Positions 13,800 through 59,410 of a stretch of DNA of 64,000 bases are shown piece after piece. The stretch comes from Patescibacteria group bacterium (GTDB lineage: Bacteria > Patescibacteriota > Patescibacteriia > UBA10025 > JAHIVO01). A program made the translations under genes and the position numbers. The stretch spans positions 20,683-84,682 of the forward strand of contig JAZDEZ010000015.1 in NCBI GenBank assembly GCA_043808365.1, written 5' to 3'. The notes under the pieces are model-generated. The model saw only the letters and a program-made list of their open reading frames with translations. It was not told where the DNA came from and ran no database searches. How positions within the stretch are numbered: position 1 is the stretch's first letter; the number at the start of each line of letters is the position of its first letter.

Positions 13800-14258
13800 A
13801 ATTGTAATAAAGAGAAAATCACTTTACGAAGGTACCACCTCCAATCTTTACCGTATTTGGCAGGGAATTTTACCGCCCGTCCAAGGTATGTAGCAAATAC
13901 TACTTGGATCACCTCCTTTCCAGCATGATATGCATAGTACTGCTGCTACCGATAATGTGTCTGCGGACCATAATACCCAGTACCTCCTTTCTGCCAGGCG
14001 TGAGGTTGCCGATTATACCATACCGCCCTGACTTTCATCAGGAGGATCATTTTCCATCGCGATAACAAATGGTTATTGCGCCTGTCACCGGATTTATGAC
14101 TGATAGTAACCTCCTTATGTTGGGAAGGTTCGACGATATCTCTTTGTTTCTATCTGTCTTCATTATAGTACTATTGTAAACAAAGAATAGCCGTGTCAAG
14201 GGTTAATGGCGCGGTATTCGAAATGAAAAAAAGAAAATTTCGCTAACTGCTGTGAAAA

Positions 14259-15305: not shown

Positions 15306-15343
15306 ATGAAGTATTGTACCAGCTTATGGGAATTTATTAAAGA

Positions 15344-15371
15344 TTGACAAGTCAGCTTGCTTTGATACCAT
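15344..15371 (+). promoter_or_regulatory. Sigma70-like promoter for the candidate sRNA.
   Basis: TTGACA, 16-nt spacer, TACCAT. Confidence 0.3.
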
Positions 15372-15377
15372 AAAGCA

Positions 15378-15598
15378 ATCCGGATCGCGACTGGCCAAAT
15401 CGATCCTACGTGCCCGTGAGCACAAGGACTCGGCTGCCGTGAGGAGTGCCCGCGAATATATAGCCTGCTGCGCTGTAGTGTATGGGAATAAGCGCCTGCG
15501 AAGTTGGTAAGTTGAGTAACGGGATTCTAAATCCCTGTACAAGAAACGCGCATCGTAGCCTGGGCAAAAAGGCTGTATACCTCACGGCCTTTTTTTTA
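15378..15598 (+). ncRNA. Candidate small RNA (~220 nt) of unknown class.
   Basis: Promoter-like element upstream. Internal hairpins (CGTGAGCAC palindrome, GGGATTCTAAATCCC). It ends in a GC stem followed by T8 at 15591-15598. The downstream gene has a separate promoter (TTGACA-17-TATTAT at 15618). Confidence 0.3.
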
Positions 15599-15763
15599 TT
15601 GCTTTTAACTGCACCCATTGACAACCGCCAGTATTCATGCTATTATTCCCCATTCCACTGCTCGTTGACAATTAATGCTTGTACGAGCGCAACCAAAAAA
15701 ACCCATTTTTCACTGACTGCGCAGGTCATTAAAATCCTGAGTGCAGAGTGAAAGGAGGAAACC

Positions 15764-16375
15764 ATGAATGTGATGATCATCCCGGTCACGCCTAACAAGC
15801 GCTGGTATCTTGAGCGTAGAGATGGCCTGATAGAATTAGGCACGCATTGGCCACTTCAAGAGACCTCAAATTTCGGCGGATACGTTAACGGCGAACCTTG
15901 CACTGGTCCTTTCTACCTCATTTTCAATGGGCCAGGAGATTCCAGCGAGATCAGGCTTCACTGTGAGAAATGCAATCTTCACCTTCAAGAAAAAACGCAT
16001 AAAAATCGCTTCGGCGCATTGGATGTCAAAGAACTCAAGCTCGCTCTGGCCAGGCTTATGTTCGTTTGTGCCCGACATGGCAACAAAATCAATCCGCCGA
16101 TCCAATTTCCCTGCCTCAGCCTGGGCGACAGAAGAAACCACATGCATGCCGATATCCCCTTGCTCGACACTGGTTTTTCCACCCCTGACGAGCAACCGAT
16201 CCACCTCGGATTATTCCTGCCGCGCCGAACCGGCTACTGGGATCCCAAAAAAGGCAAATGGGTCCCGGAAGAAACCTACGATAACTTGGCCGAATCAACA
16301 GCCCTCCTCATCGCTGAGCTGCTCAACAACAGCCGTTCCTTAGAACTTGCCAACAAACGTACGATCGGACGATAA
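15764..16375 (+). CDS. Hypothetical protein with a C-x2-C-x3-H-x5-H zinc-finger-like motif.
   Basis: 203 aa. Strong SD (AAAGGAGGAAACC-ATG). Motif LHCEKCNLHLQEKTH. No family was recognised. Confidence 0.5.
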   Translation: MNVMIIPVTPNKRWYLERRDGLIELGTHWPLQETSNFGGYVNGEPCTGPFYLIFNGPGDSSEIRLHCEKCNLHLQEKTHKNRFGALDVKELKLALARLMFVCARHGNKINPPIQFPCLSLGDRRNHMHADIPLLDTGFSTPDEQPIHLGLFLPRRTGYWDPKKGKWVPEETYDNLAESTALLIAELLNNSRSLELANKRTIGR

Positions 16376-16404
16376 CGCTACCAACGAACGTACGCACATA
16401 TGCA

Positions 16405-16440
16405 CCCCTCGCCCTATCCATGGACGAGGGGATTTTTATT
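16405..16440 (+). terminator. Rho-independent terminator.
   Basis: CCCCTCG...CGAGGGG 7-bp stem followed by ATTTTTATT. Confidence 0.5.
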
Positions 16441-16572
16441 ACATCTGGAAATTTTCGGGCTGAAACGGAGTCAGCGGGAAATTCCCGTATTAACACATTC
16501 TAACATTCTTAAGAATGTTCAAATTTAAATTTACCTCCGAAGATTCGCGCGAACGATTCCATATGGATAGCC

Positions 16573-16802
16573 GCGCACCCAGGGACGGGTGCGCTTGGCA
16601 GAAACAAAAAATCCTATCTCACACTTCTCGCTTCCCGCTTCCCGACTCGCATCCCACATCTGAAACTCACCTCCAACCTCCAACTTCCTATCTAATATCT
16701 CCCCCTACGGGGGATCTCCCGAAGGGAGATAATAACTTACACCCAACAACCAATCTCCTCGCTAACCACTAATTACTAGTGGCTAACAACTAGCGACTAA
16801 CA
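16573..16802 (+). repeat. Copy A of a ~190-230-nt pyrimidine-rich intergenic element: a 5' GC hairpin, CCUCC-containing repeats, and a stop-codon-rich tail.
   Basis: GCGCACCCAGGGACGGGTGCGC hairpin, then ATCCTATCTCACAC...CACCTCCAACCTCCAACTTCC...ACTAATTACTAGTGGCTAACAACTAGC. It aligns with the copy at 28520-28688. Confidence 0.5.
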
Positions 16803-16817
16803 TGCTATACTTACCCC

Positions 16818-17534
16818 ATGCAACCACGTTTTTACCTGCCAACGGTCAGCATTGAAAACGAAACGCTCGTCATATCTGACCGTGATATCATCCGGCAAAT
16901 AACGAATATCTTACGGCTGAAAAAGGACGACGTCTTTTTCGTTTTTACTCCTCAAACTGAATACGAGCTGGCCCTAAAAGCAGTCTCTAATTCAATAGTG
17001 GAAGCGACTGTCATCGAACAGCGTCAGGCTGAACGGGAACCGGCTAAAAAACTCATCTTGTACCAGTCTTTGCTGAAAAAAGACAAGTTCGAGTGGATTC
17101 TGCAAAAAGGCGTGGAGCTCGGCATCCATGCCTTCGTGCCGGTCGTCAGCGACAACAGCATCGCCCGCGACATTTCTGACAACAAGCTGGTACGCTACCA
17201 TAAAATCATAACTGAAGCGACCGAACAATGCGGCGGCGTGCATATCGCTCCATTGGATCCCCTGATGAAGTTTTCCGATGCCGTTCTGCGTGTCGCGCAA
17301 CAGACCGGCCAAAAGCTCATTGCCTGGGAAGGACAGACGAAAAATTTGCTTCCAAAAGTCCTCGACGCCTCTGCTAAGGTTTTCCACCTGTTTATCGGGC
17401 CGGAAGGCGGTTATTCTCCGGCAGAAATAGAGTTTGCCGAACAAAATGGGCTAACCACGGTCAATCTGGGCAAGCGCATTCTCCGGGCAGAAACCGCTTC
17501 GATTGCCGCGGCCGCGCTTATTCTTCTGAATTAG
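16818..17534 (+). CDS. rsmE: 16S rRNA (uracil1498-N3)-methyltransferase RsmE (SPOUT family).
   Basis: 238 aa. The C-terminal SPOUT knot motifs are present: HLFIGPEGGYSPAEIEF...LGKRILRAETAS. Confidence 0.75.
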   Translation: MQPRFYLPTVSIENETLVISDRDIIRQITNILRLKKDDVFFVFTPQTEYELALKAVSNSIVEATVIEQRQAEREPAKKLILYQSLLKKDKFEWILQKGVELGIHAFVPVVSDNSIARDISDNKLVRYHKIITEATEQCGGVHIAPLDPLMKFSDAVLRVAQQTGQKLIAWEGQTKNLLPKVLDASAKVFHLFIGPEGGYSPAEIEFAEQNGLTTVNLGKRILRAETASIAAAALILLN

Positions 17535-17582
17535 CCGGCAATATGGTATACTATATTCGGATTTTTATTAATAAAAAATAAT

Positions 17583-18398
17583 ATGTTTGAAAACGTTTCT
17601 CGTCCGCAAAACCAACCGCCCCAAGCTCCAGAGCAACCGAAAAATTGGGGTCCCTGGAAGCCAGTAGACCCGACCAGAAGGCCGGCTGTCCCGCCTAGAC
17701 GCGAGGCTGGCCCGATGCCGCCGCCGCCCATGGGCTCGGAACCGGTTGTCCCGCCGCCCCAAAATCCACTGGTGAATCTGCCGAGCCACCTCAACGTCCC
17801 CGGTGCCGGCACGCCCGAACCGCCGCGTCATGGCCGGAGCAAGATGATCATGATCGGCCTGATGATTTTCGCCGTCATTATTGTCCTGATTGCCGCGGCT
17901 ATTTTCCTGTTCAGCAAATATAGCAATAAGAACGCCAATACTAACGATAATACGAATGCTGTTAGTAATGAAAATGCAAACATTGCCCTCAACACTAACC
18001 TGAATTCCAATCTGAATGCTAACAGAAACTTGAATAGCCTCTTTAACACAAACGCGGCAAACGCCAATGCCGCGTCTAACCTTAATTCACTTTTCAACGT
18101 GAACACGTCGGGCAACGCGAATGTAAATGCTAACGTGAATACAAACGTGAATTCCGTCGGTAATATAAATGGCAACGGGAACACAAACACCACCAACCTA
18201 AATAACACTAACATTGCCGCCTGCAATGTGAATGGACAGCCGGACAGCGACTGCGACGCGCTCAGTGATGTCCAAGAAGAAATCTACGGCACAGACCGCA
18301 GGAATCCTGACACTGACGGCGACGGGTACTTAGACGGCGCTGAAGTGAAGAGCGGCTTTAACCCGAATGTTGGTGGTGGCGCCAAGCTCAATCCATAA
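17583..18398 (+). CDS. Hypothetical membrane protein with a Pro-rich N-terminus, one TM segment, a long Asn-rich low-complexity region, and a C-terminal Ca-binding-like (TSP3-type) motif.
   Basis: MIMIGLMIFAVIIVLIAAAIFLF is the TM segment. ~150 aa are of the N-x-N composition. The C-terminal motif is DTDGDGYLDGAEV. Confidence 0.5.
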   Translation: MFENVSRPQNQPPQAPEQPKNWGPWKPVDPTRRPAVPPRREAGPMPPPPMGSEPVVPPPQNPLVNLPSHLNVPGAGTPEPPRHGRSKMIMIGLMIFAVIIVLIAAAIFLFSKYSNKNANTNDNTNAVSNENANIALNTNLNSNLNANRNLNSLFNTNAANANAASNLNSLFNVNTSGNANVNANVNTNVNSVGNINGNGNTNTTNLNNTNIAACNVNGQPDSDCDALSDVQEEIYGTDRRNPDTDGDGYLDGAEVKSGFNPNVGGGAKLNP

Positions 18399-18426
18399 CC
18401 AAAACCTAAAAAAAACCATAAAAAAA

Positions 18427-18455
18427 CTCCGTCACCCGACGGGGTTTTTTATTTT
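18427..18455. terminator. Bidirectional rho-independent terminator between two convergent genes.
   Basis: CCGTC-ACCC-GACGG stem, flanked by A7 upstream and T6ATTTT downstream. Confidence 0.55.
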
Positions 18456-18984
18456 ATATTTTTATCAAATCGCGCAACGCTTTGGTTAGCCACCGGAAAC
18501 TTAACCTAGACCAAGGAATTGAATTTTTCCTGAACCACCGATATCCGTTTATATCATCCATCGGTTTCAATGCTCCGGACCGGATTTTAGCCAGGTAAAT
18601 AAGATTCAAGGTGTTTAAATCATACCCATGCCGATATGTATCCATATACACGCCGAGTAATCGGACTTCCTTGAGAGTGATGCCCAGCTCCTCCTTGATT
18701 TCCCGAAATAAACCACGCCGTGGCTCTTCACCGTCCTCCAGAAAGCCGCCTGGCGAGTCCCACCAGCCTTTTTTCGGATTCACTGCCCGTTTAACCAGTA
18801 AAATACGATTCTGAACATCCTCCAGAAATACAGATACCGTTGGCTTGGAATTCTGGTAAAAATCATACCTGCATCGAGAACAGCGGAGCATCCCTTTTTT
18901 CTGGAATCTGGAATACTTCGCCCCGCAATGCGGGCAGAATTTAAAATATGCATTAGCGCTGTAATTCATATGCGCGCAAGACAT
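18454..18984 (-). CDS. NUDIX hydrolase with an N-terminal zinc ribbon.
   Basis: CPHCG...CSRCRY zinc ribbon. Nudix box GGFLEDGEEPRRGLFREIKEELG. Confidence 0.7.
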   Translation of the reverse strand: MSCAHMNYSANAYFKFCPHCGAKYSRFQKKGMLRCSRCRYDFYQNSKPTVSVFLEDVQNRILLVKRAVNPKKGWWDSPGGFLEDGEEPRRGLFREIKEELGITLKEVRLLGVYMDTYRHGYDLNTLNLIYLAKIRSGALKPMDDINGYRWFRKNSIPWSRLSFRWLTKALRDLIKI

Positions 18985-19795
18985 TTTGTAAAAGCATAGA
19001 CACGGTCATCGGCCCGACTCCTCCTGGCACGGGGGTTATCCAGCCAGCAACGCCGGAAACGTCAGTAAAATCAACGTCACCGACCGCTTTGCCGTTGAGC
19101 CGATTATAGCCGACATCAATGACTATGGCGCCAGGCTTGACCATTTCTTTTTTCACGAACCTCGGCCGGCCGATCGCCACGATAATGACGTCAGCCGCCA
19201 GCGTCTGCTCCGCTAACTTAATATCGTCCGGCGACACATGGTCCGCTCGGCTTCCTAGTTTTTCCATCAGTAATGCGATTGGTTGGTAAAAAATCTTGCT
19301 GTTAGAAATGATGACAGTTTTTTTCTCCGTTAAGCTTTCTCCGGTGCTTCGCGCCAGCTCTACGATCCCGGCCGCCAAACCCGGCACCAGGCCCGGCCGG
19401 CCTTGCTGCTGCGACTGGATGTTTTCCGGATGAAAACCGTCTACGTCTTTAATTGGTTTTATGGCGCTGATGATTTTGTCCGTGCCGTACCCTTTTGGCA
19501 AAGGGAGCTGCACGAGGATGCCATTGATGTCTTTACGACCGTTCAATTCTGAAATCTTTTCCATGACCTTCGGCTCGCCGATGTTCTCCGGATACACGTA
19601 TTTTTCGATTACAATACCAACGTCCTGCGCCGCCTGCTCTTTCAGCCCAACGTAAATATACGAGGCCGGATCGCTGCCAATTAAAATAATCGCCAAGCCC
19701 GGCTTGTTGGAAAGCTTGGCCACGCTCCGTTTAACGTCTTGCAAGACGCCATCCGCTATTTTTTTGCCATCAATGATGTGTGCTCTTTGAAACAT
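18953..19795 (-). CDS. folD: Bifunctional methylenetetrahydrofolate dehydrogenase/cyclohydrolase.
   Basis: 280 aa with the FolD pattern (IILIGSDPASYIYVGLK..., GRPRFV, PVPGGVGPMT). It overlaps the Nudix gene by 32 nt. Confidence 0.85.
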   Translation of the reverse strand: MFQRAHIIDGKKIADGVLQDVKRSVAKLSNKPGLAIILIGSDPASYIYVGLKEQAAQDVGIVIEKYVYPENIGEPKVMEKISELNGRKDINGILVQLPLPKGYGTDKIISAIKPIKDVDGFHPENIQSQQQGRPGLVPGLAAGIVELARSTGESLTEKKTVIISNSKIFYQPIALLMEKLGSRADHVSPDDIKLAEQTLAADVIIVAIGRPRFVKKEMVKPGAIVIDVGYNRLNGKAVGDVDFTDVSGVAGWITPVPGGVGPMTVSMLLQNVLRAYELQR

Positions 19796-19860
19796 ACGCT
19801 AATCATATCATAAATCCGCCCGTCCAACACAGGTATGGCCATGTGCGCCGCCCCACCCTT

Positions 19861-19942
19861 GTCATTGCGAGGAGTGGAACGACGAAGCAATCTGGCCTGC
19901 AAGACTATCCCGAACAGAGCCGAGGAATCCCTCAGTAGATAC
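19861..19942 (+). repeat. Copy R2 of the GTCATTGCGAGGAG MITE-like repeat.
   Basis: GTCATTGCGAGGAGTGGAACGACGAAGCAATCT ... GAATCCCTCAGTAGATAC. Confidence 0.4.
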
Positions 19943-20125
19943 TATAAAACCCTTCACTGAGCTCGGGATGAAGGCTGTGCCCGCGGCGGTATGAATAAAT
20001 GCACGCGCAACCACGGCGGGTTGCGCTCCGAGGGTAATAAAAATCGGGGCGGCGCTATTGCCATCCTTCTGAAACCAACCTCTGACTTCCTGACTAATTT
20101 CTAACAACTAAAAACTAACTACTAA

Positions 20126-21424
20126 TTACTTATTACTAATTACTGAACCATACACCGGATGCTTTTCTGTGAGTTCTTTTACTTTTTTCCTCACCTCTTC
20201 TTTGGCTGATTCTTTTTGTGGGTTATGGATAGTCTCGGCAATCACGTCTGCCACGACTTTCATGTCTTCTTCCGTAAAACCGCGAGTGGTCAATGCCGGC
20301 GTGCCCAACCGGATGCCAGACGGGTCCATCGGCTTACGCGGGTCGAATGGCACGGTATTCTTATTGACCGTAATCCCCACTTCATCCAGTAGGGTCTCAG
20401 CTTCCTGGCCGGTTATGTTCTTGTTGGTTAAATCAACTAATAATAAATGGTTGTCCGTGCCGCCGGTGATCAGCTTGAAATCATGCGCCAAAAGCTGTTC
20501 GGCCAGCGCCTTGGCATTTTTGACAATTTGATGGCCGTACAGCTGAAAAGCCTTGGTTGACGCTTCTTTCAGCGCTACGGCAATGGCCGCGGTCTGATGG
20601 TTATGCGGCCCGCCTTGCAAGCCCGGGAATACTGCCCGGTCAATGAGTTCGGCTAAATTCCACTTTGACCCCGCGTGATATTTTTCCTTCAAACGATCCT
20701 CTTTTTTCGGGCATAAAATCATCGCTCCCCGCGGCCCGCGCAATGTCTTGTGCGTGGTCGTCATAATGACATCCGCATGATCAACGGGCGACTGGTGCGC
20801 GCCGGCAATCACCAACCCGGCCACATGGGAAATATCAGTCAGTAAATACGCTCCCACCTCGCGTGCTATCCGGCCGAACGCGGCAAAATCAAATTCACGC
20901 GGATACGCCGTCGCGCCGGCGATAATCATTTTCGGCCGCTCCTTTTTTGCCAGTTCCAGCACCTCTTCATAATTTATCAGTTGGGTTTCCTTGTCGACGC
21001 CATACGGCACTGAATGGTAGTACCGTCCGGAAAAATTCACTTTCCACCCGTGCGTCAGATGCCCGCCATGCGGCAGGCTCATGCCCATGACTTTGTCCCC
21101 CGGCTCCAGCAACGCGAAATACACCGCCTGGTTGGCCGGCGAACCGGAGTACGGCTGGACATTGGCGTGCTCCACGCCGAATAATTGCTTGGCGCGGTCA
21201 CGGGCGATATTCTCAATCACGTCAATAAATTCATTTCCGCCGTAATAGCGTTTGCCGGGATACCCTTCGGAATACTTGTTCGTGCCAATCCCGCCCAAAG
21301 CTTCGAGCACAGCCTTGGACACATAGTTTTCCGAAGGGATCATTTCCAAGCCGTCCTGCTGTCGTTTGAGTTCTTGGCTAATGGCCGAGAAAATCTCCGG
21401 ATCTTCTTTTTGTAATGGTTCCAT
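20126..21424 (-). CDS. glyA: Serine hydroxymethyltransferase.
   Basis: 432 aa. The PLP-lysine motif TTTHKTLRGPRG and HLTHG are present. Confidence 0.9.
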   Translation of the reverse strand: MEPLQKEDPEIFSAISQELKRQQDGLEMIPSENYVSKAVLEALGGIGTNKYSEGYPGKRYYGGNEFIDVIENIARDRAKQLFGVEHANVQPYSGSPANQAVYFALLEPGDKVMGMSLPHGGHLTHGWKVNFSGRYYHSVPYGVDKETQLINYEEVLELAKKERPKMIIAGATAYPREFDFAAFGRIAREVGAYLLTDISHVAGLVIAGAHQSPVDHADVIMTTTHKTLRGPRGAMILCPKKEDRLKEKYHAGSKWNLAELIDRAVFPGLQGGPHNHQTAAIAVALKEASTKAFQLYGHQIVKNAKALAEQLLAHDFKLITGGTDNHLLLVDLTNKNITGQEAETLLDEVGITVNKNTVPFDPRKPMDPSGIRLGTPALTTRGFTEEDMKVVADVIAETIHNPQKESAKEEVRKKVKELTEKHPVYGSVISNK

Positions 21425-21467
21425 ACCTGCATTGTACTGGAAAAATGGCCGGATGGCAAAAATGCTC

Positions 21468-21496
21468 TTGACATGATCTAATGTTTACTGTACAAT
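21468..21496 (+). promoter_or_regulatory. Near-consensus sigma70 promoter driving the retron locus, divergent from glyA.
   Basis: TTGACA, 17-nt spacer, TACAAT. Confidence 0.5.
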
Positions 21497-21502
21497 ACGG
21501 GT

Positions 21503-21778
21503 TGCCAAATTACGTGGCTATGGCGATTCGCCATATTTGATGGTTTTTGAATCTCGAAAGAACTTTTTCAACTCAAAGAAATACCTCCTCTATGCGCGTC
21601 TATCCGCGTCCCTAGCATAGCCTAGGGGTTACTGTTTTCCGCACACAAGGTACAGATTGTAATTGGTACTTTACTGAAATAAGGCTGAAATTACTGTTTA
21701 TCAGTTATAGATAAATTTTTTCTAAAAGGTCGGGGATGACACTCATCCAAAAAACCATTAAAGAAAGGAGGCACAACA
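21503..21778 (+). ncRNA. Candidate retron non-coding RNA (msr/msd) region. Its boundaries are not defined.
   Basis: ~280 nt with no ORF, lying between a strong promoter and the retron-type RT gene. Several stem-loops are present (ATGGCGA-T-TCGCCAT, CCCTAG-CATAGC-CTAGGG, ACTG...CAGT). I could not identify unambiguous a1/a2 repeats by eye. Confidence 0.3.
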
Positions 21779-21985
21779 ATGAAAAAGAAATATTCGGGAA
21801 GAAGGGTAATTTCCACTCTTTCGCTGCGTTACAGTAGGTCCGTTAACTCCTCTGACTCAAATTTAGGCGCACTGCGACAGTTCATAAATGGATGTAAAAA
21901 ACTGTGGAAAATCATATCAACCCTACCTTTTTATCAATTAACTCGCCCGCTAATCACGGGCGAGGTTTTAATACAACAAATTTAA
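21779..21985 (+). CDS. Small basic hypothetical protein (68 aa) overlapping the RT start in another frame.
   Basis: Best SD in the locus (AAAGAAAGGAGGCACAACA-ATG). No recognisable domain. It may instead be non-coding msd sequence. Confidence 0.3.
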   Translation: MKKKYSGRRVISTLSLRYSRSVNSSDSNLGALRQFINGCKKLWKIISTLPFYQLTRPLITGEVLIQQI

Positions 21986-22890
21986 AATTAAAAAACTTAT
22001 CTGATCTCGCCAAATTAATAAATACTCCTGTCTGGTTTATAAATAAATTGATCCAAACAAGACAAAAACGATATAACTTTTGGAATTACCCCAAAAAAAG
22101 TGGCGGTATTAGAACTTTGTCGAGACCAGATGCTGAATTACGGTTTGTCCAAGAAAAGATATATCAAAATATTCTCCGTTTTGTACCTCTTCCTGAATAC
22201 ATTCACTCACAAATAGGCCATTCCCATGTACAACACGCAGTTAGCCATCAAGGTAAACCGCTGGTTTTACTTTTTGATATTGCCGACTTTTTCCCAAGCA
22301 TTAGTACCAGAATGGTAAAAAACGCATTAACCCATGCGGGATTTACTGAAATTGTCGCAAAAAAAATAGCTAACCTGTGCACATTATCGAATAAAAGTAC
22401 ATCGCATGGATTTCTCCCTCAAGGAACCTCAACCAGTCCAGCATTGGCAACACTAGTGGCGACATCGCTTGATCATCGTCTATGGAAACTGAGTTCTAAA
22501 AATAATTGGATCTATACCCGTTTTGCTGATGATATCGCAATTTCAGGAGGTCTAGGCCTAAGACGAGCAAAAAAACTAATACTCAATATTATCAACAGTT
22601 CCAATTTCAAGGTAAGGGAGTCAAAAACTGAAGAAATAATCCCCGGACGCCGTAATAAAATAGTAGGGCTGCAACTTTATGGAAAAAATATTACGCCGCC
22701 AAGAGAATATTACAAACTTTTACGATCTATGATCCACCATCTTCAAACCAATAAAATACGTGGAAAAGCCAGACTGAAATTAAGAAAAAGTATTCAATCA
22801 AGGCTTTCATACGGTCTTTACGTTGAAAAAATAAGCAACACAAAACAAGGAAAGTTTTTTCGGCTTGCCCAAGCAATAACTATCGCTTAA
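21904..22890 (+). CDS. Retron-type reverse transcriptase (GTG start).
   Basis: RT motifs 1-2 YPKKSGGIRTL, motif A LLFDIADFFPSI, motif B' LPQGTSTSPALATL, motif C YTRFADDIAI. The thumb region RRNKIVGLQLYGKNITPPREYYKLLRSMIHHL parallels the retron-RT VTG...IHH region. 328 aa is a typical retron RT length. Confidence 0.8.
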   Translation: MENHINPTFLSINSPANHGRGFNTTNLKLKNLSDLAKLINTPVWFINKLIQTRQKRYNFWNYPKKSGGIRTLSRPDAELRFVQEKIYQNILRFVPLPEYIHSQIGHSHVQHAVSHQGKPLVLLFDIADFFPSISTRMVKNALTHAGFTEIVAKKIANLCTLSNKSTSHGFLPQGTSTSPALATLVATSLDHRLWKLSSKNNWIYTRFADDIAISGGLGLRRAKKLILNIINSSNFKVRESKTEEIIPGRRNKIVGLQLYGKNITPPREYYKLLRSMIHHLQTNKIRGKARLKLRKSIQSRLSYGLYVEKISNTKQGKFFRLAQAITIA

Positions 22891-22891
22891 T

Positions 22892-23416
22892 TTATTTCAC
22901 CTTCGCCCAGAGGTACTCACTGATCAATCTCCCCCGCTTTTTGACCACTTTGCGCATCAGGCCTTCGCGCTTAAAACCGTTCTTTTTTAAAACCTTTTGC
23001 GATGCTCGATTTGGGACAAACGTATACGCGTACACCCGATGAAGTTTGAACTTTTTAAACGCATAGTTAACCACCAGCTTCACTGCCTCTGGGATTATAC
23101 CCTGACCCCAGTATCTCCGTGCCAGCCAATAGCCGATTTCCGCCTTGTGTCGTGGTTCGATATGCGACAAACCGACACACCCGACAATCTCCCTATCCAT
23201 CTCAATGGCAAATTGAATATCTTTGGGTGAGCGCTGACGGTACTGCGGGATTGTCTTGGCAAACCACTTTGTGGCGTCGGACAAACGGTAGGGGTATGGG
23301 ATATGCAATGTGTACCGGTATATTTTGTAGTCGTTAATATTACGGGCTACAGCTGGCGCGTCCGACAGGCGATATGGCCGTAACACAAAACGCTTGGTTT
23401 TGATGACGTAGTTCAT
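22892..23416 (-). CDS. GNAT family N-acetyltransferase (RimJ/RimL-like).
   Basis: RFVLRPYRLSDA..., IVGCVGL, and the acetyl-CoA motif RRYWGQGIIPEAVKLVVNYAF. Confidence 0.75.
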   Translation of the reverse strand: MNYVIKTKRFVLRPYRLSDAPAVARNINDYKIYRYTLHIPYPYRLSDATKWFAKTIPQYRQRSPKDIQFAIEMDREIVGCVGLSHIEPRHKAEIGYWLARRYWGQGIIPEAVKLVVNYAFKKFKLHRVYAYTFVPNRASQKVLKKNGFKREGLMRKVVKKRGRLISEYLWAKVK

Positions 23417-23426
23417 TGGTGGAGTC

Positions 23427-24377
23427 CTATTTTACTAAAAACTTCCTTACCGATTCCAGCTGTCCGGCACTGCCCAGCATCTCGTTCTTATGGACAATGT
23501 ATTTAGCATATTCGGCCATAAACACCTTGCCGGGTTTGCGCAGGTCAAACACTTCCGGATGGTCGCGGAACATTTCCCGGTGCACGCGGCACCACACCAG
23601 CCGTCCGTCCGTATCGATGTTCACCTTGGTCACGCCCATTGCGGCCGCTTTCTTGAACTGCGTCTCATCCACGCCTTTGGCGCCTTTCATAACACCGCCG
23701 GCCGCGTTGATGCGGTCAATCTCGTCCTTCGGCACGGAGCTGGATCCGTGCATGACTAACGGGAAACCGGGTAATAATTTCTCAATGCCTTCGATTACCT
23801 CAAAATGCAGGCCTTGCGTACCGGCGAATTTATAGGCGCCGTGGCTCGTGCCGATGGCGCAGGCTAAGCTGTCGCAGCCGGTCTGGGCGACGAATTCTTT
23901 GGCTTGCACGGGGTCGGTCAATTTCGCATCGCTCTCCGCCACGCTGACATGCTCCTCAACGCCGCCGAGCTGGCCCAATTCCGCCTCAACTGAAATTCCT
24001 TTGGCATGGGCCGCGGCAACGACCCGCTTGGTGGCGGCGACATTGCCGTCAAACGGAAGTGCGGACGCGTCGATCATGACCGAACTGTAAAATCCGCCGG
24101 TAATGCAGTCCAGGCATGCCGCTTCATCGCCATGGTCCAGGTGGACGGCGAAAATCGCTGCTGGAAAAATTTCTTCAGCCGACTTGATCATTGCTTCCAA
24201 TAATCGCTTGTCAGTATATTCCCTAGCGCCTTTGGATATTTGGATAATGAACGGCGCCTGGCTGTCCAAGTTGCCCTGGAACAAGCCCATGATCTGCTCG
24301 GCGTTATTGATGTTATAAGCGCCGACGGCATATTTTTTATATGCGTGCTTAAATAATTTTTCTGTGGCGACGATCAT
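23427..24377 (-). CDS. fba: Class II fructose-bisphosphate aldolase.
   Basis: FIIQISKGAREY, AVHLDHGD, HGSSSVP, and a class II aldolase C-terminus. Confidence 0.85.
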   Translation of the reverse strand: MIVATEKLFKHAYKKYAVGAYNINNAEQIMGLFQGNLDSQAPFIIQISKGAREYTDKRLLEAMIKSAEEIFPAAIFAVHLDHGDEAACLDCITGGFYSSVMIDASALPFDGNVAATKRVVAAAHAKGISVEAELGQLGGVEEHVSVAESDAKLTDPVQAKEFVAQTGCDSLACAIGTSHGAYKFAGTQGLHFEVIEGIEKLLPGFPLVMHGSSSVPKDEIDRINAAGGVMKGAKGVDETQFKKAAAMGVTKVNIDTDGRLVWCRVHREMFRDHPEVFDLRKPGKVFMAEYAKYIVHKNEMLGSAGQLESVRKFLVK

Positions 24378-24400
24378 ATTATTTAATTTAATGGATTATA

Positions 24401-25606
24401 TTAATATACTCGATCGATTAACCCGCTGACTTTCTCCATCTTGGCGGAAAACTCGGCGCGTGGCCGGCCAAAACAGAATCCGAGCTGTTCGTAGAGCGCG
24501 ACCTCATTCAGGTCAACAGTCCTCCGCTTGATGGCGGCGGCAATGTCCATATAGTGGATGGTGCCGTTTTCATACCCGGTCACCGTCACGCCGGCAATGC
24601 CCTGCAGCAGCAGGTACATCGCGGCCGCCCCAGTCTCCATGCCGAAATTCGCGTCAAGCGCAGAAGAAAATCCGCATCGCACCAAATGGCTGGGAACAAT
24701 CGCCCGCACCTCCGGCAAGTCATACTGCCCAGCGACGTACATGCCCTGTTCCACCATAAACCGTTTGATTTCCGAATCATCTTTCATCAGCTTCTTTATT
24801 TCCTGGACCACGTACTTGCCGGCTCCGGCCAGCCTCTGATGGCCGAACGCGTCAATGCCGGACCCTTCGTCATGCAATTCTTTGCCGGATGCGTCCTTGA
24901 TGCCTTCCGCCACGACAATGGTGTATGTGCCGGCCTTGACATCACTTTCCATGATGCGCTTCATGTATACCTTCTTCAAATGACGGTATAATTCACCGAA
25001 CTTGACGGGGATTTCCGGAATCAGAATCGCGTCTGCCTCCCCAGCCACACCGCCGCGGAACGCCGCATGGCCGGTATACCTGCCGAACGCCTCTATAACC
25101 AAAATCCGATTATGCGTCCGGCCGGTCGTTTTCAGGTCGCGAATGCAGTCAGCGATGCGGTTAATGGTCGAGTCGCCGCCGAGAGAATATGGCACCAGAT
25201 CCAGATCCATAGTCTTTGGCACATGGATGCACTTGATGCCGTGCTTTTCCAAATCCAACACCACGCCGCCCGTATCATCGCCGCCGCTGATGACCAATCC
25301 TTCAATCTTGAATTTCGCCAAACCGGCCTTGATCCGCTCGTACTTTTTATCATCATCTATTTTTGAAATTTTCACGCGCGAATGCCCTGCCTCGGACCCG
25401 GCAATGCCGATGCTGAAAGTGTCTAAACGCGATGGCGTTAATTCAACCAGGGACTTCATGTCACGGAGGTTATACAGCCCCGCATAGCCGTTCGGGATGG
25501 CGAATGCTTTTACGCCCTTGCGGTTCGCCATCTGGGCCACGCCTTTTACGACGGCGTTCAACCCGCCGCAATCCCCGCCGCTGGTGATAATGCCGATTGT
25601 TTTCAT
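24401..25606 (-). CDS. pfp: Phosphofructokinase, probably pyrophosphate-dependent.
   Basis: IGIITSGGDCGGLNAVV. The GGDDTGG motif (rather than GGDGS) and PKTMDLD match the PPi-PFK signature. Confidence 0.8.
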   Translation of the reverse strand: MKTIGIITSGGDCGGLNAVVKGVAQMANRKGVKAFAIPNGYAGLYNLRDMKSLVELTPSRLDTFSIGIAGSEAGHSRVKISKIDDDKKYERIKAGLAKFKIEGLVISGGDDTGGVVLDLEKHGIKCIHVPKTMDLDLVPYSLGGDSTINRIADCIRDLKTTGRTHNRILVIEAFGRYTGHAAFRGGVAGEADAILIPEIPVKFGELYRHLKKVYMKRIMESDVKAGTYTIVVAEGIKDASGKELHDEGSGIDAFGHQRLAGAGKYVVQEIKKLMKDDSEIKRFMVEQGMYVAGQYDLPEVRAIVPSHLVRCGFSSALDANFGMETGAAAMYLLLQGIAGVTVTGYENGTIHYMDIAAAIKRRTVDLNEVALYEQLGFCFGRPRAEFSAKMEKVSGLIDRVY

Positions 25607-25709
25607 ACGTTTTATTTAATTCCTCAAGCGTCAAACAACCATGAAAACATGACATAGAAGTATAGTAATGGTACGGTTTTAACGCCTCTCAGTCAACCGC
25701 CCCCACCAT

Positions 25710-25836
25710 GTCATTGCGAGGAGCGACCCTGAACTCGATTCAGGGGAGCGACGTGGCAATCTCGGTGCAGTCCAACCAACAAGATCCTCACGTCGTGTCG
25801 CCTCTTTTCATTCGGCGCCACTCCTCAGGATGACAC
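25710..25836 (+). repeat. Copy R3 (full length, ~127 nt) of the MITE-like repeat with imperfect terminal inverted repeats.
   Basis: Left end GTCATTGCGAGGAG, internal GACGTGGCAATCTCGGT and AAGATCCTCACGTCG, right end CACTCCTCAGGATGACAC (reverse complement GTGTCATCCTGAGGAGTG). Confidence 0.5.
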
Positions 25837-25852
25837 ATGGGGCGGTAAGAAT

Positions 25853-25881
25853 TTGACAGCCATCTACAAAAGGTGTAAACT
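25853..25881 (+). promoter_or_regulatory. Sigma70-like promoter.
   Basis: TTGACA, 17-nt spacer, TAAACT. Confidence 0.35.
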
Positions 25882-25887
25882 ACCTCC

Positions 25888-26079
25888 GTATGAACAATAC
25901 TTTTCCACAACTAAAAAACCTCTTCCACTACTGTTGGCATTTTTATTTCTCTTCCGTTGAAGAGGTATATTTACGTAGTGGAAAAATTATGGTCTAATCA
26001 CATCCTGCCACGTAAATAAGAAAAGCCTCTTCAATAGAACGGAAGAGGTATTTTTGTATATCCCTTAAACCATCAACGT
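25888..26079 (+). promoter_or_regulatory. Structured 5' leader: tandem terminator-like hairpins with mutually exclusive pairings (attenuator / candidate riboswitch of unknown class).
   Basis: Three CCTCTTC and two GAAGAGG segments. Hairpins CTCTTC-CGTT-GAAGAG+UAUAUUU and CCTCTTC-AATAGAACG-GAAGAGG+UAUUUUUGUAU. A long-range TTTTCCAC/GTGGAAAA pairing is possible. No T-box sequence is present. Confidence 0.35.
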
Positions 26080-26976
26080 ATGAAAAAATCAGTAATAAAA
26101 ATTGGCTCATTATCCATTCCTCAGATAACACTGGGGGGTGGACGGCCTCGGATACTCATTACCGCGGGCATACATGGCGATGAATTCAGCCAGCAGATAG
26201 TTTTGCAACGGCTGCTCGCCGATCCGCCACAGTTACAACGTGGGTCAATCGTTATCCTGCCGCGAGTTAATCCTCTCGGATTGGCAGAAAATACAGAGGT
26301 AAACCCCACTGATGGATTGAATATTAACCGGGTATTCCCGGGTAAAAAAAATTCGCCAAACATCTCGCGGCGTATCGCTAACATGGTGTTCGAACAGGCG
26401 CTCCAAAGCGATACAGTCGTCGATTTGCATAATTTCACCGATCCGGCTCTGCCCCAGATAATCTACGTTGATGCGGGCAAGCGTCAAATCCGCCAACAAT
26501 CACTGCAGTTCTGCCGAATATATGGGTTTCCCCTGGTCTGGAGGATTCGCGCCAACGACCCGGGCATGGATGGCTCCCGCAAAACGCTCATCTTTAATGC
26601 AGTGCGGGCCGGCATACCTGCTATTGGAGTAGAACTGCCGCCGTTGGACGGGCTGACGGAGAAAGAAATAAAAACTGGAGTAACGGGGCTACGTCGGGTT
26701 CTGCAAGTGATGTCTGATTCTGGTAAAAATTTTCAACAACGCCCAATAACCATCATTGACCGTAAAAACGTACGGGCTCAACAGTCCGGCATCTTCGTCC
26801 CCTTGCTGCCAATCGGTGTCTCGGTGAAACCCAGCAGTATTATCGGAAAAATACTCACCTCCGATCTTCAGGAAATGCCAGTCCGCGCTGAATTCAGTGG
26901 GCTGCTGACACGGCTACGGAGAGCGGGGCCCATTAACAAAAAACAACTCATTGGAAATATTGGAATGAAAAAATAA
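26080..26976 (+). CDS. Succinylglutamate-desuccinylase / aspartoacylase (AstE/AspA) family zinc hydrolase.
   Basis: ITAGIHGDEF (Zn ligands), NPLG...DGLNINRVFPG, DLHN. Confidence 0.6.
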   Translation: MKKSVIKIGSLSIPQITLGGGRPRILITAGIHGDEFSQQIVLQRLLADPPQLQRGSIVILPRVNPLGLAENTEVNPTDGLNINRVFPGKKNSPNISRRIANMVFEQALQSDTVVDLHNFTDPALPQIIYVDAGKRQIRQQSLQFCRIYGFPLVWRIRANDPGMDGSRKTLIFNAVRAGIPAIGVELPPLDGLTEKEIKTGVTGLRRVLQVMSDSGKNFQQRPITIIDRKNVRAQQSGIFVPLLPIGVSVKPSSIIGKILTSDLQEMPVRAEFSGLLTRLRRAGPINKKQLIGNIGMKK

Positions 26977-27026
26977 ACAAAAACGTAGTTCCTTAACAAC
27001 CAACTCAACACCGAAGGAGGTTTGCC

Positions 27027-28346
27027 ATGAATGCGCAAACTACACTCGTATCGCCGAATGAACTGAAAGACTCTGCCCTGTCGGTCAAAGCGCGGCTCGA
27101 TGGGTACCAGGTGGGTTTCGGCGAGGACAGGCGATTTATGTCGCTGGTCAGTCCGGCCCCGTACCTGATCTCAACTGACGACCACCAGACGTTGAAAAAG
27201 CGCGGCCACGTGATCCGCCAATGGGTCGAGACGACAAACCGCCTCTACCACGCGTCGCTCACTGATCCGTCGCTATTCTGGCTCCGTGACCTGCTGGAAA
27301 CCGGACTCAACGACGAAATGCGAGCCATCCATCGTCAGCTCCACGCCAAGCAGCCGATGCGCGCCCCGTTCTTCATGCGGATGGACCAGCCGACATTTAC
27401 CTGCGCCGCAGAAGCGCAGACTCCCGGCTCCGGCTGGGGGTACCACGCCGCGCTGGCCACCTGCTACGAGGAATATACCGTCCTCGGAAGATCATTCGTC
27501 GCCAGAGTCGCTCACACATTGCGGGAACTGACGGGTAAGGATCGTCCACGCGTGGTGCACCTGCTGCATAAAGTCGATTATTACGGCACTGAAGCAACAT
27601 TCTTTGCCCAAGCTATCCGAGCCGCTGGCATTGATTTCACTATCAGTGTCAGAACCATTCCTGAAAATATCAAAACCTATGACGTTGTTTTCCGCCACTA
27701 CTTGGAGGAACTCGGTCAATACTCTGGTTGGCAGAATCTGTTGGGACTGTACGATCGCGGCGGCATCGAAATCGAACCTGCTCCTAACATCATCACCGAC
27801 CATAAGATCTCTATGATGCTACCGTTCCATCCGAGGACGTTCATGTATTATTCGGATGCCGTACGCTCCATTTTCCCGGCGACGTACCTGGTCGACCCGT
27901 ACGCTACCTACCAGATGCGCATCAGTAATAACTATGCGCACCCGGTCAGGCTAAGCAACCTGCCAGGCATCCCGCCGAAACAGCGCCGGCTGACGCTGAA
28001 GTACGCAGGCATGGATCCTCAAAAACGCGCCGGCGGGCGGGGAGTGTTCAACCTATCCATGAGCGATGAAGCTGAAATCAATCGGCTCCTCCAGCAGGTC
28101 ATTGATGACACCTACAACGGCATACCATGGCTGCTTCAGGAAATGGTGTTGCGGCGGTATCCGGTTACATACCTATCGGCTGAAGGCGCCATCGCCAACG
28201 ACCAGTGGTACGCCCGCATCAACCCGTTCTATGCCTTTCCGGCATCCGGCGGGAGTGAACTGCTCGGATGCCCCGTGCATTTCCGGAATTTCTGGAAAGT
28301 GCATGGGCAGCCGGACGCGGTGGAAACAATCATGGCAATTGCTTGA
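27027..28346 (+). CDS. Hypothetical protein, possibly a glutathionylspermidine-synthase-like (circularly permuted) ATP-grasp ligase.
   Basis: RMDQPTFTCAAEAQTPGSGWGYHAAL resembles the R-x-D...E-x-N-A-D-T-P motif of GSP-synthetase/YgiC-like ATP-grasp proteins. This is a weak, motif-only call. Confidence 0.35.
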   Translation: MNAQTTLVSPNELKDSALSVKARLDGYQVGFGEDRRFMSLVSPAPYLISTDDHQTLKKRGHVIRQWVETTNRLYHASLTDPSLFWLRDLLETGLNDEMRAIHRQLHAKQPMRAPFFMRMDQPTFTCAAEAQTPGSGWGYHAALATCYEEYTVLGRSFVARVAHTLRELTGKDRPRVVHLLHKVDYYGTEATFFAQAIRAAGIDFTISVRTIPENIKTYDVVFRHYLEELGQYSGWQNLLGLYDRGGIEIEPAPNIITDHKISMMLPFHPRTFMYYSDAVRSIFPATYLVDPYATYQMRISNNYAHPVRLSNLPGIPPKQRRLTLKYAGMDPQKRAGGRGVFNLSMSDEAEINRLLQQVIDDTYNGIPWLLQEMVLRRYPVTYLSAEGAIANDQWYARINPFYAFPASGGSELLGCPVHFRNFWKVHGQPDAVETIMAIA

Positions 28347-28370
28347 TTGTTACACACAAAAAACAGGGCG

Positions 28371-28438
28371 GCAGTAGGACTTAGGAAATAACCACGAAGT
28401 TAGAATCCATTAAGTCCTATTGCTCGCCCTGCCTAAAA
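28371..28438 (+). repeat. Long hairpin (~18-bp stem, ~30-nt loop) after the 27027 gene. It may be a terminator or structured RNA.
   Basis: GGGCGGCAGTAGGACTTA ... TAAGTCCTATTGCTCGCCC inverted repeat with one mismatch. Confidence 0.4.
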
Positions 28439-28519
28439 ACTAAGCTATTCCACTGTTCACGTCAAGTCTAGATAGGCAAAAGGATTTTCCGATGGCGTGC
28501 TTTTTTATTAAAAATAGTC

Positions 28520-28688
28520 GCGCACCCAGAGACAGGTGCGCTCGGAGGATATTCATTATCCTACCTCACCCATCTGAATCCAACATCCAACCACTAACTT
28601 CCTAACCAACTTCTTACCCTCCCCCTTATAGCTCCCATAGCTCTTCTATCCCCACTAACTACTAACCTACTAATGGCTAGCTACTAGC
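28520..28688 (+). repeat. Copy B of the pyrimidine-rich intergenic element. Its tail overlaps the last codons of Elp3.
   Basis: GCGCACCCAGAGACAGGTGCGC hairpin after a T-run, then ATCCTACCTCACCC...CATCCAACCACTAACTTCC...CTAATGGCTAGCTACTAGC, collinear with copy A. Confidence 0.5.
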
Positions 28689-30250
28689 TTCCTCACCATA
28701 TACGTCTTTTCCAACCGGTACCCCAGCTTCCGATAGTACTCACGCACCCCGATTCCTGAAATGACAGCCATTTTTATATAACCTTTTTTCTTCGCGATAC
28801 GTTCTGCTTCAACCAATAACCGCTTGCCAAAACCGATGTGCTGGACTGCTTTTTTCTTCCCGCCGATTGGCATTAGCTCCCCGTACGTATGCAATTCGCG
28901 TATTAACGCAGTCTCATCATCAAACGCACCAATAAAACGTTTTGCCGGAGCTGGCAGCCACAACCGGATAAAGGCGTATAGTTTTTTCTCGTCTTTGCTT
29001 TCAAAACTGATAAAATGCTCCTCGCCTGCTCCAGCCCTATAAACACGCTCTTTCAGTTTTACCTGATTTTGTTTAACGATCTCTTTTCGCGCCTCACGGC
29101 AACGGATGCATTTGCATTTCACCCCACGCTCCTGCAGCAACTGGCGCAAGTTCGTGGTCATGTTGCCAGCCACGATGTCCGGACCGGGAATATCACGGAT
29201 CAAACGGTTGATACGTACATAGGGTGGCATGATGCCTTTTATTTTTATCAGCAACTCCACTAATTGCTTATTGCTATACGGCTTATACCTGCCCTGCTGG
29301 TACCACTGATACAATAAAGAATTTTTCACCACCAAGCAGGGATATATCTTCAGCATATCCGGCTGGAACCGTGAATCGCCGAAAACTATTTTGAATGTAT
29401 CAAAATCTTTCTTCGGCGTGGCGCCAGGCAAACCGGGCATCAGATGATACGTGAACTTGAATCCGAACGCACGCAACAATGACGTAGCACGAGCAATATT
29501 ATCCAGCGTGTCATCCCGTTTGACCAGATCTAAAATGTCCTGATGCAGCGTCTGCACCCCGATCTGCACGTGCGTGCATCCCAGCTCGCGCATCCGCCAC
29601 AGCTCGGCCGAGGTCACGTGGTCAGGCCGCGTTTCCAAACTCAAACCGATAATCCGATGCTTTGCAGTTTCATTGATCTTCTGCGCCTTTTGAAGTGTCT
29701 TTGCCGTAGACTGTAGTCGGCAGTCCGTCGCCTCATTCGCCGCGTCAAAACACCGCTTAATAAACCATGTCTGGTAATCGTGCGGGTAATGCGACCACGT
29801 CCCTCCCAAGACAATCAGCTCAATCTTATCCGCGCTATGGCCATTGGCCTCCAGCGTGGCAATGCGCATTTTTACCTGCTGATACGGGTCGAACTTCAGG
29901 CTCAACCCCCTTTGCGCGGCCGGTTCGGATGACAGGTAGCTTTTCGGCATCCTGGCTTCTGTCGGGCAGTATACGCATCGGCCCGGGCACGGATAGGGTT
30001 TTGTTAATACGGTGACTGGCGCCACGCCGGACAGCGTCCTGATTTCGCGCTTGCGCAATAGCCGCAACAGCCGCTGGTCGGGGTTTTTTATTCCCTGCTT
30101 TCGGTACTGCCCCAGTATCTCGGAATTGGGTATAATGGTGGTGCGGTATTTAGTGGCCAACAAACGCTTGGCCTGACGGACCGCGGCAACCGTCTCTGGC
30201 TTGGCTCGTACGAAATCACGCGTATATTTTTGCAAAGTTTTCTTATTCAT
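28670..30250 (-). CDS. Elp3-family protein (radical SAM + GNAT), the bacterial homolog of the tRNA U34 carboxymethyltransferase.
   Basis: Radical-SAM cluster CPGRCVYCP, and a C-terminal GNAT domain (GYIKMAVISGIGVREYYRKLGYRL). 526 aa. Confidence 0.8.
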   Translation of the reverse strand: MNKKTLQKYTRDFVRAKPETVAAVRQAKRLLATKYRTTIIPNSEILGQYRKQGIKNPDQRLLRLLRKREIRTLSGVAPVTVLTKPYPCPGRCVYCPTEARMPKSYLSSEPAAQRGLSLKFDPYQQVKMRIATLEANGHSADKIELIVLGGTWSHYPHDYQTWFIKRCFDAANEATDCRLQSTAKTLQKAQKINETAKHRIIGLSLETRPDHVTSAELWRMRELGCTHVQIGVQTLHQDILDLVKRDDTLDNIARATSLLRAFGFKFTYHLMPGLPGATPKKDFDTFKIVFGDSRFQPDMLKIYPCLVVKNSLLYQWYQQGRYKPYSNKQLVELLIKIKGIMPPYVRINRLIRDIPGPDIVAGNMTTNLRQLLQERGVKCKCIRCREARKEIVKQNQVKLKERVYRAGAGEEHFISFESKDEKKLYAFIRLWLPAPAKRFIGAFDDETALIRELHTYGELMPIGGKKKAVQHIGFGKRLLVEAERIAKKKGYIKMAVISGIGVREYYRKLGYRLEKTYMVRKLVASH

Positions 30251-59338: not shown

Positions 59339-59410
59339 TGCCCTCAGTAGGAATCGAACCTACATCACAAGATCCGGAATCTTGTGTCCTATCCATTGAA
59401 CGATGAGGGC
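59339..59410 (-). tRNA. tRNA-Arg (anticodon CCG).
   Basis: Reverse complement GCCCTCA-TC-GTTCAATGGATAGGAC-A-CAAGATTCCGGATCTTG-TGAT-GTAGGTTCGATTCCTAC-TGAGGGC-A folds as a canonical cloverleaf. The CCA end is not encoded. Confidence 0.85.

Follow-up and report, generated by a model that had tools for sequence, protein, structure and literature searches.

A probable compact retron with a small open reading frame between its non-coding RNA and its reverse transcriptase in a Patescibacteria group bacterium

Locus and features

The locus described here lies in a stretch of 64,000 nucleotides (hereafter the window) of contig JAZDEZ010000015.1, from assembly GCA_043808365.1 of a Patescibacteria group bacterium. 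It holds a reverse transcriptase (RT) gene of the retron type, which is preceded on the same strand by a promoter, a structured non-coding RNA (ncRNA) with candidate msr and msd parts, and a small open reading frame (ORF) that overlaps the start of the RT gene. We consider it very probable that the locus is a retron-family element and, with a probability of roughly 70%, that it represents a compact retron, about 1.4 kb in length, composed of promoter, msr/msd, a translationally coupled small ORF and an RT of the retron clade. Positions are those of the window, and features lie on the + strand unless stated otherwise.

Reverse transcriptase

The RT gene (21904-22890) encodes 328 amino acids (aa) from a GTG start, and the product contains a single RVT_1 domain (Pfam, 2e-16). 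NCBI lists the identical protein, on a contig of 115 kb, under accession MFH1207448.1 with the name 'MAG: reverse transcriptase family protein [Patescibacteria group bacterium]'. An earlier note on this DNA had given this length and this start codon, both of which agree with the ORF list, and had quoted a set of RT motifs, all of which were found in the translation of 21904-22890 (KKSGGIR, FDIADFFPSI, LPQGTSTSPAL, FADD, NKIVGLQL and REYYKLLRSMIHHL).

Full-length matches were obtained to the retron RT profiles of PADLOC, with the best scores for types III-A (2.4e-60, 202 bits) and II-A (3.1e-59, 199 bits), followed by VI (7.8e-54, 181 bits) and XIII (1.2e-53), the overall range being 180-202 bits. 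Regarding the NCBIfam models, retron_St85_RT yielded 161 bits, compared with 41 bits for the group II maturase TIGR04416 (cutoff 300), 49 bits for Drt3a (cutoff 200) and 35 bits for Drt2 (cutoff 390). All 12 matches in the PDB were retron RTs, with Ec86 at the top (108 bits), then Ec67 and Kva2. The matches in PADLOC, NCBIfam and the PDB therefore identify the RT as a retron-clade enzyme, and the assignment made earlier by eye, to retrons and not to group II introns or diversity-generating retroelements (DGRs), is favoured by the profile comparison as well, which also sets the RT apart from the Abi/DRT groups. A group II intron was rejected on the TIGR04416 score and on the lack of a group II match in Rfam. 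A DGR was rejected because no direct repeat of at least 40 nt was found within 14000-30000, except for an unrelated intergenic pair of 62 nt, and because no DGR family was among the NCBIfam matches.

Judged by the type-profile scores, the RT appears to stand outside every defined retron type, since it and its relatives reach 185-200 bits on several type profiles alike with no clear winner, whereas a genuine III-A RT (P0010) reaches 430 bits on the III-A profile, on which the window RT scores 202 bits. Retron RTs are recognized by region X (NAxxH, with H as the most conserved residue) and region Y (VTG, with G as the most conserved residue) (PMC7736814). In the window RT, region X reads HAVSH, and HAxxH is found throughout the close relatives, so that the H is retained and the N is replaced by H. 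Region Y is IVG in the window RT, LVG in P0002 and L007 and VTG in P0008, the G being retained in each. Motif C is FADD in the window RT only; two close relatives have YADD, and P0008 has YVDD.

Relatives and distribution

In an exhaustive phmmer comparison with 1.84 billion cluster representatives (50% identity), thousands of other retron RTs were returned but just three close relatives, P0002 (45% identity), P0022 (52%, a fragment of 160 aa) and P0008 (33%); the next-best match scored 142 bits. A scan of metagenomes added one locus, L026, whose RT is 51% identical to the window RT. When one genome per GTDB species was scanned, the family was detected in only one metagenome-assembled genome (MAG) of Candidatus Kerfeldbacteria, which lie within the Patescibacteria group, and in one further Patescibacteria MAG. 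No relatives were found in IMG/VR, on the basis of which a phage origin was rejected. The taxonomically labelled loci are all from Patescibacteria, and the others are unlabelled metagenome contigs. The RT represents a small, previously unclassified lineage known so far only from Patescibacteria-type genomes and unlabelled metagenome contigs. According to a survey, about 80% of the RTs in bacteria of the candidate phyla radiation (CPR) are DGRs (PMC8632793). A full-text literature search on retrons together with Patescibacteria yielded nothing relevant.

The comparisons below use a set of five loci, i.e., the window, L026, L007, L001 and L003, in which the RTs of the four relatives are 33-52% identical to the window RT. 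A free-standing LAGLIDADG homing-endonuclease gene was seen in L003 (3689-4327), the locus of the Kerfeldbacteria MAG, directly 5' of the related retron ncRNA. A different retron architecture is present in L002 (1588-5099), where a more distant retron-type RT (P0003, 36% identity, best PADLOC profile RT_XIII) is followed by the gene for a Trypsin_2 protease of 530 aa.

Non-coding RNA

A sigma-70-type promoter, TTGACA-17-TACAAT (21468-21496), matches at 11 of 12 positions and was aptly called near-perfect in the earlier note. Promoters at the same distance precede L026 (TTGACA-17-TAGAAT) and L007 (TTGACC-17-TAAAAT); there, as in the window, 8-9 nt separate the end of the -10 box from the first leader hairpin. 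The gap between promoter and RT, previously given as about 280 nt, is 407 nt when counted to the RT GTG. Its description as free of ORFs is correct for 21497-21778, but the remainder holds an ORF of 68 codons (21779-21985).

The leader opens with two short hairpins, A (GCCA/TGGC, 21504-21518) and B (ATGGCG-ATT-CGCCAT, 21520-21534), both of which recur, with compensatory changes, in each of the five loci. L007 has GACG/CGTC in place of GGCG/CGCC, and L001 has TC../..GA in place of AT../..AT; the closing pairs of hairpin B differ in L001 and L003. The hairpins are followed by a1 (TTTGATGGTTTTT, 21536-21548), the 5' arm of an inverted repeat, which pairs over 13 bp with its 3' arm, a2 (AAAAACCATTAAA, 21750-21762), to form helix P1. 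This pairing was matched by one of 5000 shuffles. The two arms remain complementary despite divergent sequences in L026, L007, L001 and L003 (different but complementary arms being AATGATCTTT/AAAGATCATT, TGATCATTG/CAATGATCA and GAGATCTTT/AAAGATCTC), and the product of the per-locus shuffle p values over the five loci is 3e-9. Both expectations set out in the earlier note for this region, namely a structured RNA flanked by a1 and a2 upstream of the RT and its retention in homologous loci, were borne out, the second with the compensatory changes given here.

The priming G of retrons sits at the 3' edge of a1. The candidate priming (branching) residue of this locus is G21549, directly 3' of a1 and within an invariant TTGA (columns T88, T89, G90 and A91 of the five-locus alignment A4), and by analogy it would provide the 2'-OH primer. 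Two msr hairpins lie further downstream, hp1 (GCGCG/CGCGU, 21594-21609), which covaries between loci (GCGCG:CGCGU, CACGG:CCGUG, CAGGC:GCCUG), and hp2 (CCCUAG/CUAGGG, 21610-21627), which shows compensatory changes; both are candidate recognition elements for the RT, and a conserved U-rich stretch is located 3' of them. The presumed msd (21640-21749, with presumed boundaries) is the variable part of the RNA and measures about 105-185 nt across the loci. Minimum-free-energy folds of a1 to a2 in the five loci predict several hairpins for it, one of which abuts a2 in every case.

A covariance model trained on the four relatives, with the window left out, gave a single significant match on the two strands of the 64 kb, at 21503-21647 (23.5 bits, E 0.0014). 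RNAalifold on a MAFFT alignment found hairpins A, B and hp2 and missed hp1 by a register shift of one column; hp1 was checked locus by locus instead. Because folding scores relative to shuffles are modest (z -1.55 for 21530-21770, z -2.58 for 21503-21990), the evidence for RNA structure is the comparison with relatives and not the folding energy. A permissive Rfam scan (E up to 10) of 21300-23100 returned matches at chance level only and no retron msr family. In a retron census (PMC10849725), ncRNAs were recognized by a1/a2 arms that pair over more than 8 bp, by a priming G close to their beginning and by several hairpins beside a retron RT; the window ncRNA has a 13-bp a1/a2 repeat, the candidate G21549 and several hairpins adjoining its RT.

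Effector search and small ORF

Members of the known retron effector classes were not found on either strand at the locus by ORF translations, Pfam, PADLOC or NCBIfam, in agreement with the earlier statement that no effector is recognizable. The effectors or fused domains that define types I-XIII (PMC7736814), among them ATPase/HNH/Toprim, NDT, PRTase+WH, 2TM, CSD, HTH, DUF3800, protease, TIR and HEPN, were likewise absent from the products tested: the RT has a single domain, the peptide encoded by the small ORF has no match in Pfam, NCBIfam or PADLOC, and the only other product tested was that of the neighbouring GNAT gene. The remaining neighbours are housekeeping-like, judged from their translations. 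The GNAT neighbour was rejected as an effector, as its GC content is host-like and none of the relatives has it beside the RT.

The small ORF (21779-21985, 68 codons, pI 10.8) begins 16 nt past a2 and has its stop 15 nt beyond the ancestral start position of the RT (see below). It overlaps the annotated RT start by 82 nt, is not annotated by NCBI and was missed in the earlier note. Its Shine-Dalgarno (SD) sequence AGGAGG (21766-21771) lies 7 nt before the ATG, and the SD-ATG context AAAGGRGG is kept in four of the five loci. Each of the five has an open counterpart of 58-90 aa, with its ATG 16-35 nt past a2 and its stop -2 to +82 nt from the RT start; the probabilities of an open frame under shuffling of these AT-rich sequences are 0.025, 0.0006, 0.0008, 0.043 and 0.028 for the individual loci (product 1.4e-11). 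We conclude on these sequence grounds that the small ORF is probably translated.

The peptide may be the missing third component of the retron, i.e., a small basic effector or cofactor in a new two-protein type. Its ORF keeps its position and a similar length in all five loci, four of which also have a strong SD. The peptides are basic without exception (pI 10.4-11.4), with a central hydrophobic or amphipathic stretch and a predicted central helix, and they show weak collinear similarity (25% over 64 aa between the window and L026, 31% over 45 aa between L026 and L001). Small partners also have precedents within the range of 67-86 aa in type V retrons, which encode a CSD protein of that size, and of 75-110 aa in type VI retrons, which encode an HTH protein of 91-110 aa and three-helix proteins of 75-79 aa (PMC7736814). 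On the other hand, the peptides are only 11-25% identical to each other, compared with 33-52% for the RTs, and their charge and hydrophobicity are not significant overall against a compositional null, lying within expectation in most loci. The similarity of their C-termini is dictated by an RNA hairpin encoded there, no family match was obtained, and the AlphaFold model is not confident (pLDDT 61, pTM 0.27), except for a helix at residues 31-50. We regard this identification of the third component as doubtful and a role of the peptide as a functional partner as a tentative proposal; the product may be a mere leader peptide.

Two further roles of the small ORF were considered and rejected. As a split-off N-terminal extension of the kind of longer retron RTs it found no support, with no similarity to 155 retron RTs. 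A fusion of the two products through a programmed -1 frameshift at the A6 run (21896-21901) is likewise not supported: the zero frame reads U AAA AAA, the hairpin is 41 nt away, the frame of the small ORF relative to that of the RT varies between the loci (+2, +1, +2, +1, +1), and the other RTs have an ATG of their own.

Pairings around the small ORF

The SD of the small ORF is at the same time the 3' arm of a long-range helix, P2, whose 5' arm is a CCUCCU box (21584-21589). P2 has 6 bp in the window and 11, 9, 8 and 10 bp in the other loci (product of shuffle p values 5e-10), and in L001 both arms are altered together (ATCGACCT/AGGTCGAT). A second structure, the GC-rich hairpin CTCGCCCG-CTAATCA-CGGGCGAG (21942-21964), is located 5 nt before the ancestral RT start (free energy -16 kcal/mol, z -5.2). 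In all five loci, hairpins of differing sequence (-8.4 to -22.1 kcal/mol, z -1.9 to -5.3) lie within the final codons of the small ORF, 5-17 nt before the RT gene begins. The one of L003 encloses the RT ATG, and in L026 and the window the 3' arm bears the SD-like sequences GGGAG and GAGG. The hairpin was rejected as an intrinsic terminator, as none of the four relatives has the T-run and two overlapping ORFs run through the hairpin.

The simplest reading of these pairings would be translational coupling by occlusion of a ribosome-binding site (RBS), which is known from the single-stranded RNA phage MS2 and from many bacterial operons. As in coupling of the MS2 type, a hairpin within the terminal part of an upstream ORF sequesters the downstream start, and the upstream stop is at or just past the downstream start. 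In contrast to it, the SD of the upstream ORF is itself paired, with the msr of the retron, and the coupling is deduced here from the pairings.

According to the proposed mechanism, a single transcript would begin about 7 nt past the -10 box, with the two leader hairpins first. Pairing of a1 with a2, which the covariation shows, would bring the invariant G21549 beside the 3' end of the template region. As expected from retron biology, the RT would bind the two msr hairpins and prime cDNA synthesis from the 2'-OH of G21549 on the msd of about 110 nt, giving multicopy single-stranded DNA (msDNA). Synthesis of the RT would be gated twice, as the CCUCC box of the msr would mask the SD of the small ORF and the hairpin would lock the ribosome-binding region of the RT. 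Ribosomes that finish the small ORF would melt the hairpin and so permit initiation at the RT. The function may be that of other retrons, i.e., a defence or toxin-antitoxin-like module, with the small basic peptide as the only conserved candidate partner.

Start and state of the RT gene

The ancestral start position of the RT is 21970-21972, which aligns with the ATG of L026 (MTTLKLKKLSDL) and is also indicated by the protein alignment; the window now reads AAT there. The L026 gene begins with ATG ACA ACT TTA AAA TTA (MTTLKLK), whereas the window has AAT ACA ACA AAT TTA AAA TTA. By this alignment, the window copy is without the ancestral ATG. The sole canonical in-frame start is GTG 21904, which precedes the ancestral start by 66 nt and falls within the small ORF, upstream of the hairpin. 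A GTG is not the normal start of this RT family, in which the relatives use ATG, and the claim that no SD precedes it agrees with the sequence. Because the ancestral ATG is gone and GTG 21904 lacks an SD, output of RT from the window copy is probably low.

In L007 the RT is a pseudogene. An insertion of 38 nt (AGAAAAAAAAATTTGTTAGAAATTTTCTTCCACAAGGA, L007 5397-5434) disrupts the frame behind PQG, and the frame is shifted a second time near the C-terminus; L007 is 100% identical over 1501 nt to L029 and L030, and the three come from independent samples. The inserted sequence forms an inverted repeat, has the direct repeat CAAGGA on either side and may be a tiny mobile or slippage insertion. Maintenance of the family is thus not uniform.

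The window copy could accordingly be read as an inactive or decaying relic, with an RT that is poorly or not translated and has no role for the cell, in a family whose architecture is nevertheless real. The exchange of ATG for AAT, which leaves only a GTG without SD inside the small ORF, the change from YADD to FADD in this copy alone, and the doubly frameshifted RT shared by three samples all speak for it. The 328-codon frame, however, is fully open at about 37% GC, a composition at which about 7% of random codons are stops, and the catalytic motifs are all intact, as are the promoter, the ncRNA helices, the small ORF and its SD. The exchange of Y for F in motif C of an RT is conservative. 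A relic is, in our view, unlikely.

Comparison with known systems

The locus resembles Retron-Eco1 (Ec86, type II-A) in the order promoter, msr, msd and RT on one strand, in an a1/a2 repeat with a G at the 3' edge of a1 and short msr hairpins, and in an RT of about 320 aa with no extra domain, for which Ec86 is the best match among solved structures (108 bits). It differs in having no NDT-type effector, an RT with about 200 bits on the II-A models, a two-hairpin leader of 32 nt before a1, a spacer of about 220 nt between a2 and the RT with the small ORF and the RBS-occluding hairpin, HAxxH and IVG in regions X and Y, and an msd predicted as several short hairpins. Types V and VI likewise combine a retron RT with a very small protein, and RT_VI is among the top profiles (181 bits). 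In contrast to these types, the small ORF of the window lacks a CSD, HTH or PADLOC match as well as a confident three-helix fold, the RT stays below the score level of a type VI member, and the small ORF is placed between msd and RT, overlapping the RT start. We know of no description in retrons of a leader with two hairpins, a conserved small ORF placed between msd and RT, pairing of the msr with an SD or an RBS-occluding hairpin before the RT, although no search was aimed at these features.

Defence systems of the DRT2 type consist of a lone RT with an upstream ncRNA. The window locus could work in the manner of DRT2 or DRT9, producing template-repeat or homopolymer cDNA and not msDNA. With DRT2 it shares the two components, a lone RT and a long structured ncRNA upstream of it, without a separate effector gene, and the P1 stem joins both ends of the template region. 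By profile, however, the RT is not of the DRT2/UG kind (35 bits for Drt2 and 49 bits for Drt3a, compared with about 200 bits for the retron models), and the template region has no stop-free frame. At least one stop is present in each of the six frames of the a1-a2 interior in all five loci; an ORF encoded by a concatemer, as in DRT2, is therefore impossible and was rejected. We consider a mechanism of this kind very unlikely.

Genomic setting

The GC content is about 53% in the flanking genes and 35-40% (about 36%) over 21500-22900; therefore the retron segment of about 1.4 kb looks like an acquired island of horizontal origin, as far as its composition can indicate. On the promoter side lies glyA (20126-21424, - strand), and a promoter-like site on the minus strand, which faces glyA, stands back to back with the retron promoter (21431-21496), the -35 boxes being 8 nt apart. 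The GNAT acetyltransferase gene (22892-23416, - strand; Pfam Acetyltransf_3, 7.5e-35) is located on the other side. It is convergent with the RT gene, with stop codons 1 base apart (22888-22894) and no terminator between them. Further neighbouring ORFs were read as fba and pfk from their translations. The housekeeping neighbourhood reported previously (glyA, GNAT and fba) is thus confirmed, with Pfam as the basis for GNAT and the reading of the translation for fba. Apart from the small ORF, no gene neighbour is conserved across the five loci. The idea of an RT domesticated for housekeeping, in connection with the metabolic genes beside it, would suit these surroundings and the promoter set back to back with that of glyA, but it is most improbable in view of the GC island, which indicates a foreign origin, of flanking genes that differ at every related locus without glyA/GNAT synteny, and of a patchy distribution that includes a pseudogene.

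A direct repeat of 62 nt (76% identity) flanks the retron region, with copies at 16567-16628 and 28514-28575, 12 kb apart. These are the only two copies in the window (chance expectation 0); both are apparently intergenic, and the repeat carries a GC hairpin, GCGCACCC-AGRGAC-GGGTGCGC. Regarding other RNA features of the 64 kb, a SAM riboswitch (54116-54239, - strand, 55 bits) and a tRNA-Arg(CCG) (59339-59410, - strand) were the sole matches at the gathering level of Rfam and in ARAGORN. An ORF of 271 aa (17583-18398, + strand) combines a Pro-rich N-terminus with a hydrophobic segment and a long tract of low complexity that is rich in Asn (NANxN repeats).

Interpretation and significance

Several points weigh against the compact retron proposed here. 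In the RT, the canonical NAxxH and VTG are replaced by HAxxH and IVG. In the RNA, the leader has an unexceptional folding energy (z -1.55), and the msd is predicted without the single long stem that is typical of retrons. P1 and P2 are interleaved (a1, box, a2, SD), which calls for a pseudoknot or alternative states, and in L001 a distance of 28 nt separates the 3' arm of P2 from the ATG of the small ORF, so that this arm covers no SD. As far as identity, composition and the predicted fold can tell, a protein function of the small-ORF peptide is unsupported. Finally, the loss of the ATG together with FADD in place of the YADD or YVDD of the closest relatives would be a first sign of decay in the window copy, and the family itself may be decaying, as the L007 pseudogene in three samples suggests.

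A compact retron nevertheless remains our preferred reading, and the 'minimal or novel-architecture retron' suggested in the earlier note fits the locus best, once amended by the coupled small ORF and by the first sign of decay. A further step would be to see in the locus the first representative of a separate, new type of retron confined to Patescibacteria (CPR), in which a coupled small basic protein of about 60-90 aa serves as effector or RT cofactor and both proteins are under control of the msr through SD pairing. We consider this rather improbable; if true, the state of the ncRNA or msDNA would be sensed through translation and not through a separate toxin.

Retrons are three-part systems of RT, ncRNA and effector and are used as tools for genome editing. 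How they set the ratio of RT to ncRNA has, to our knowledge, been little studied, and the conserved regulatory design seen here, with msr-SD pairing and a leader ORF that would unlock the RT start, bears on this ratio. The whole element measures 1.4 kb with an RT of 300-330 aa, which makes its synthesis and testing easy. As a retron lineage from ultra-small CPR bacteria and without a recognizable effector, it could show the role of a minimal retron or reveal a small-peptide effector.

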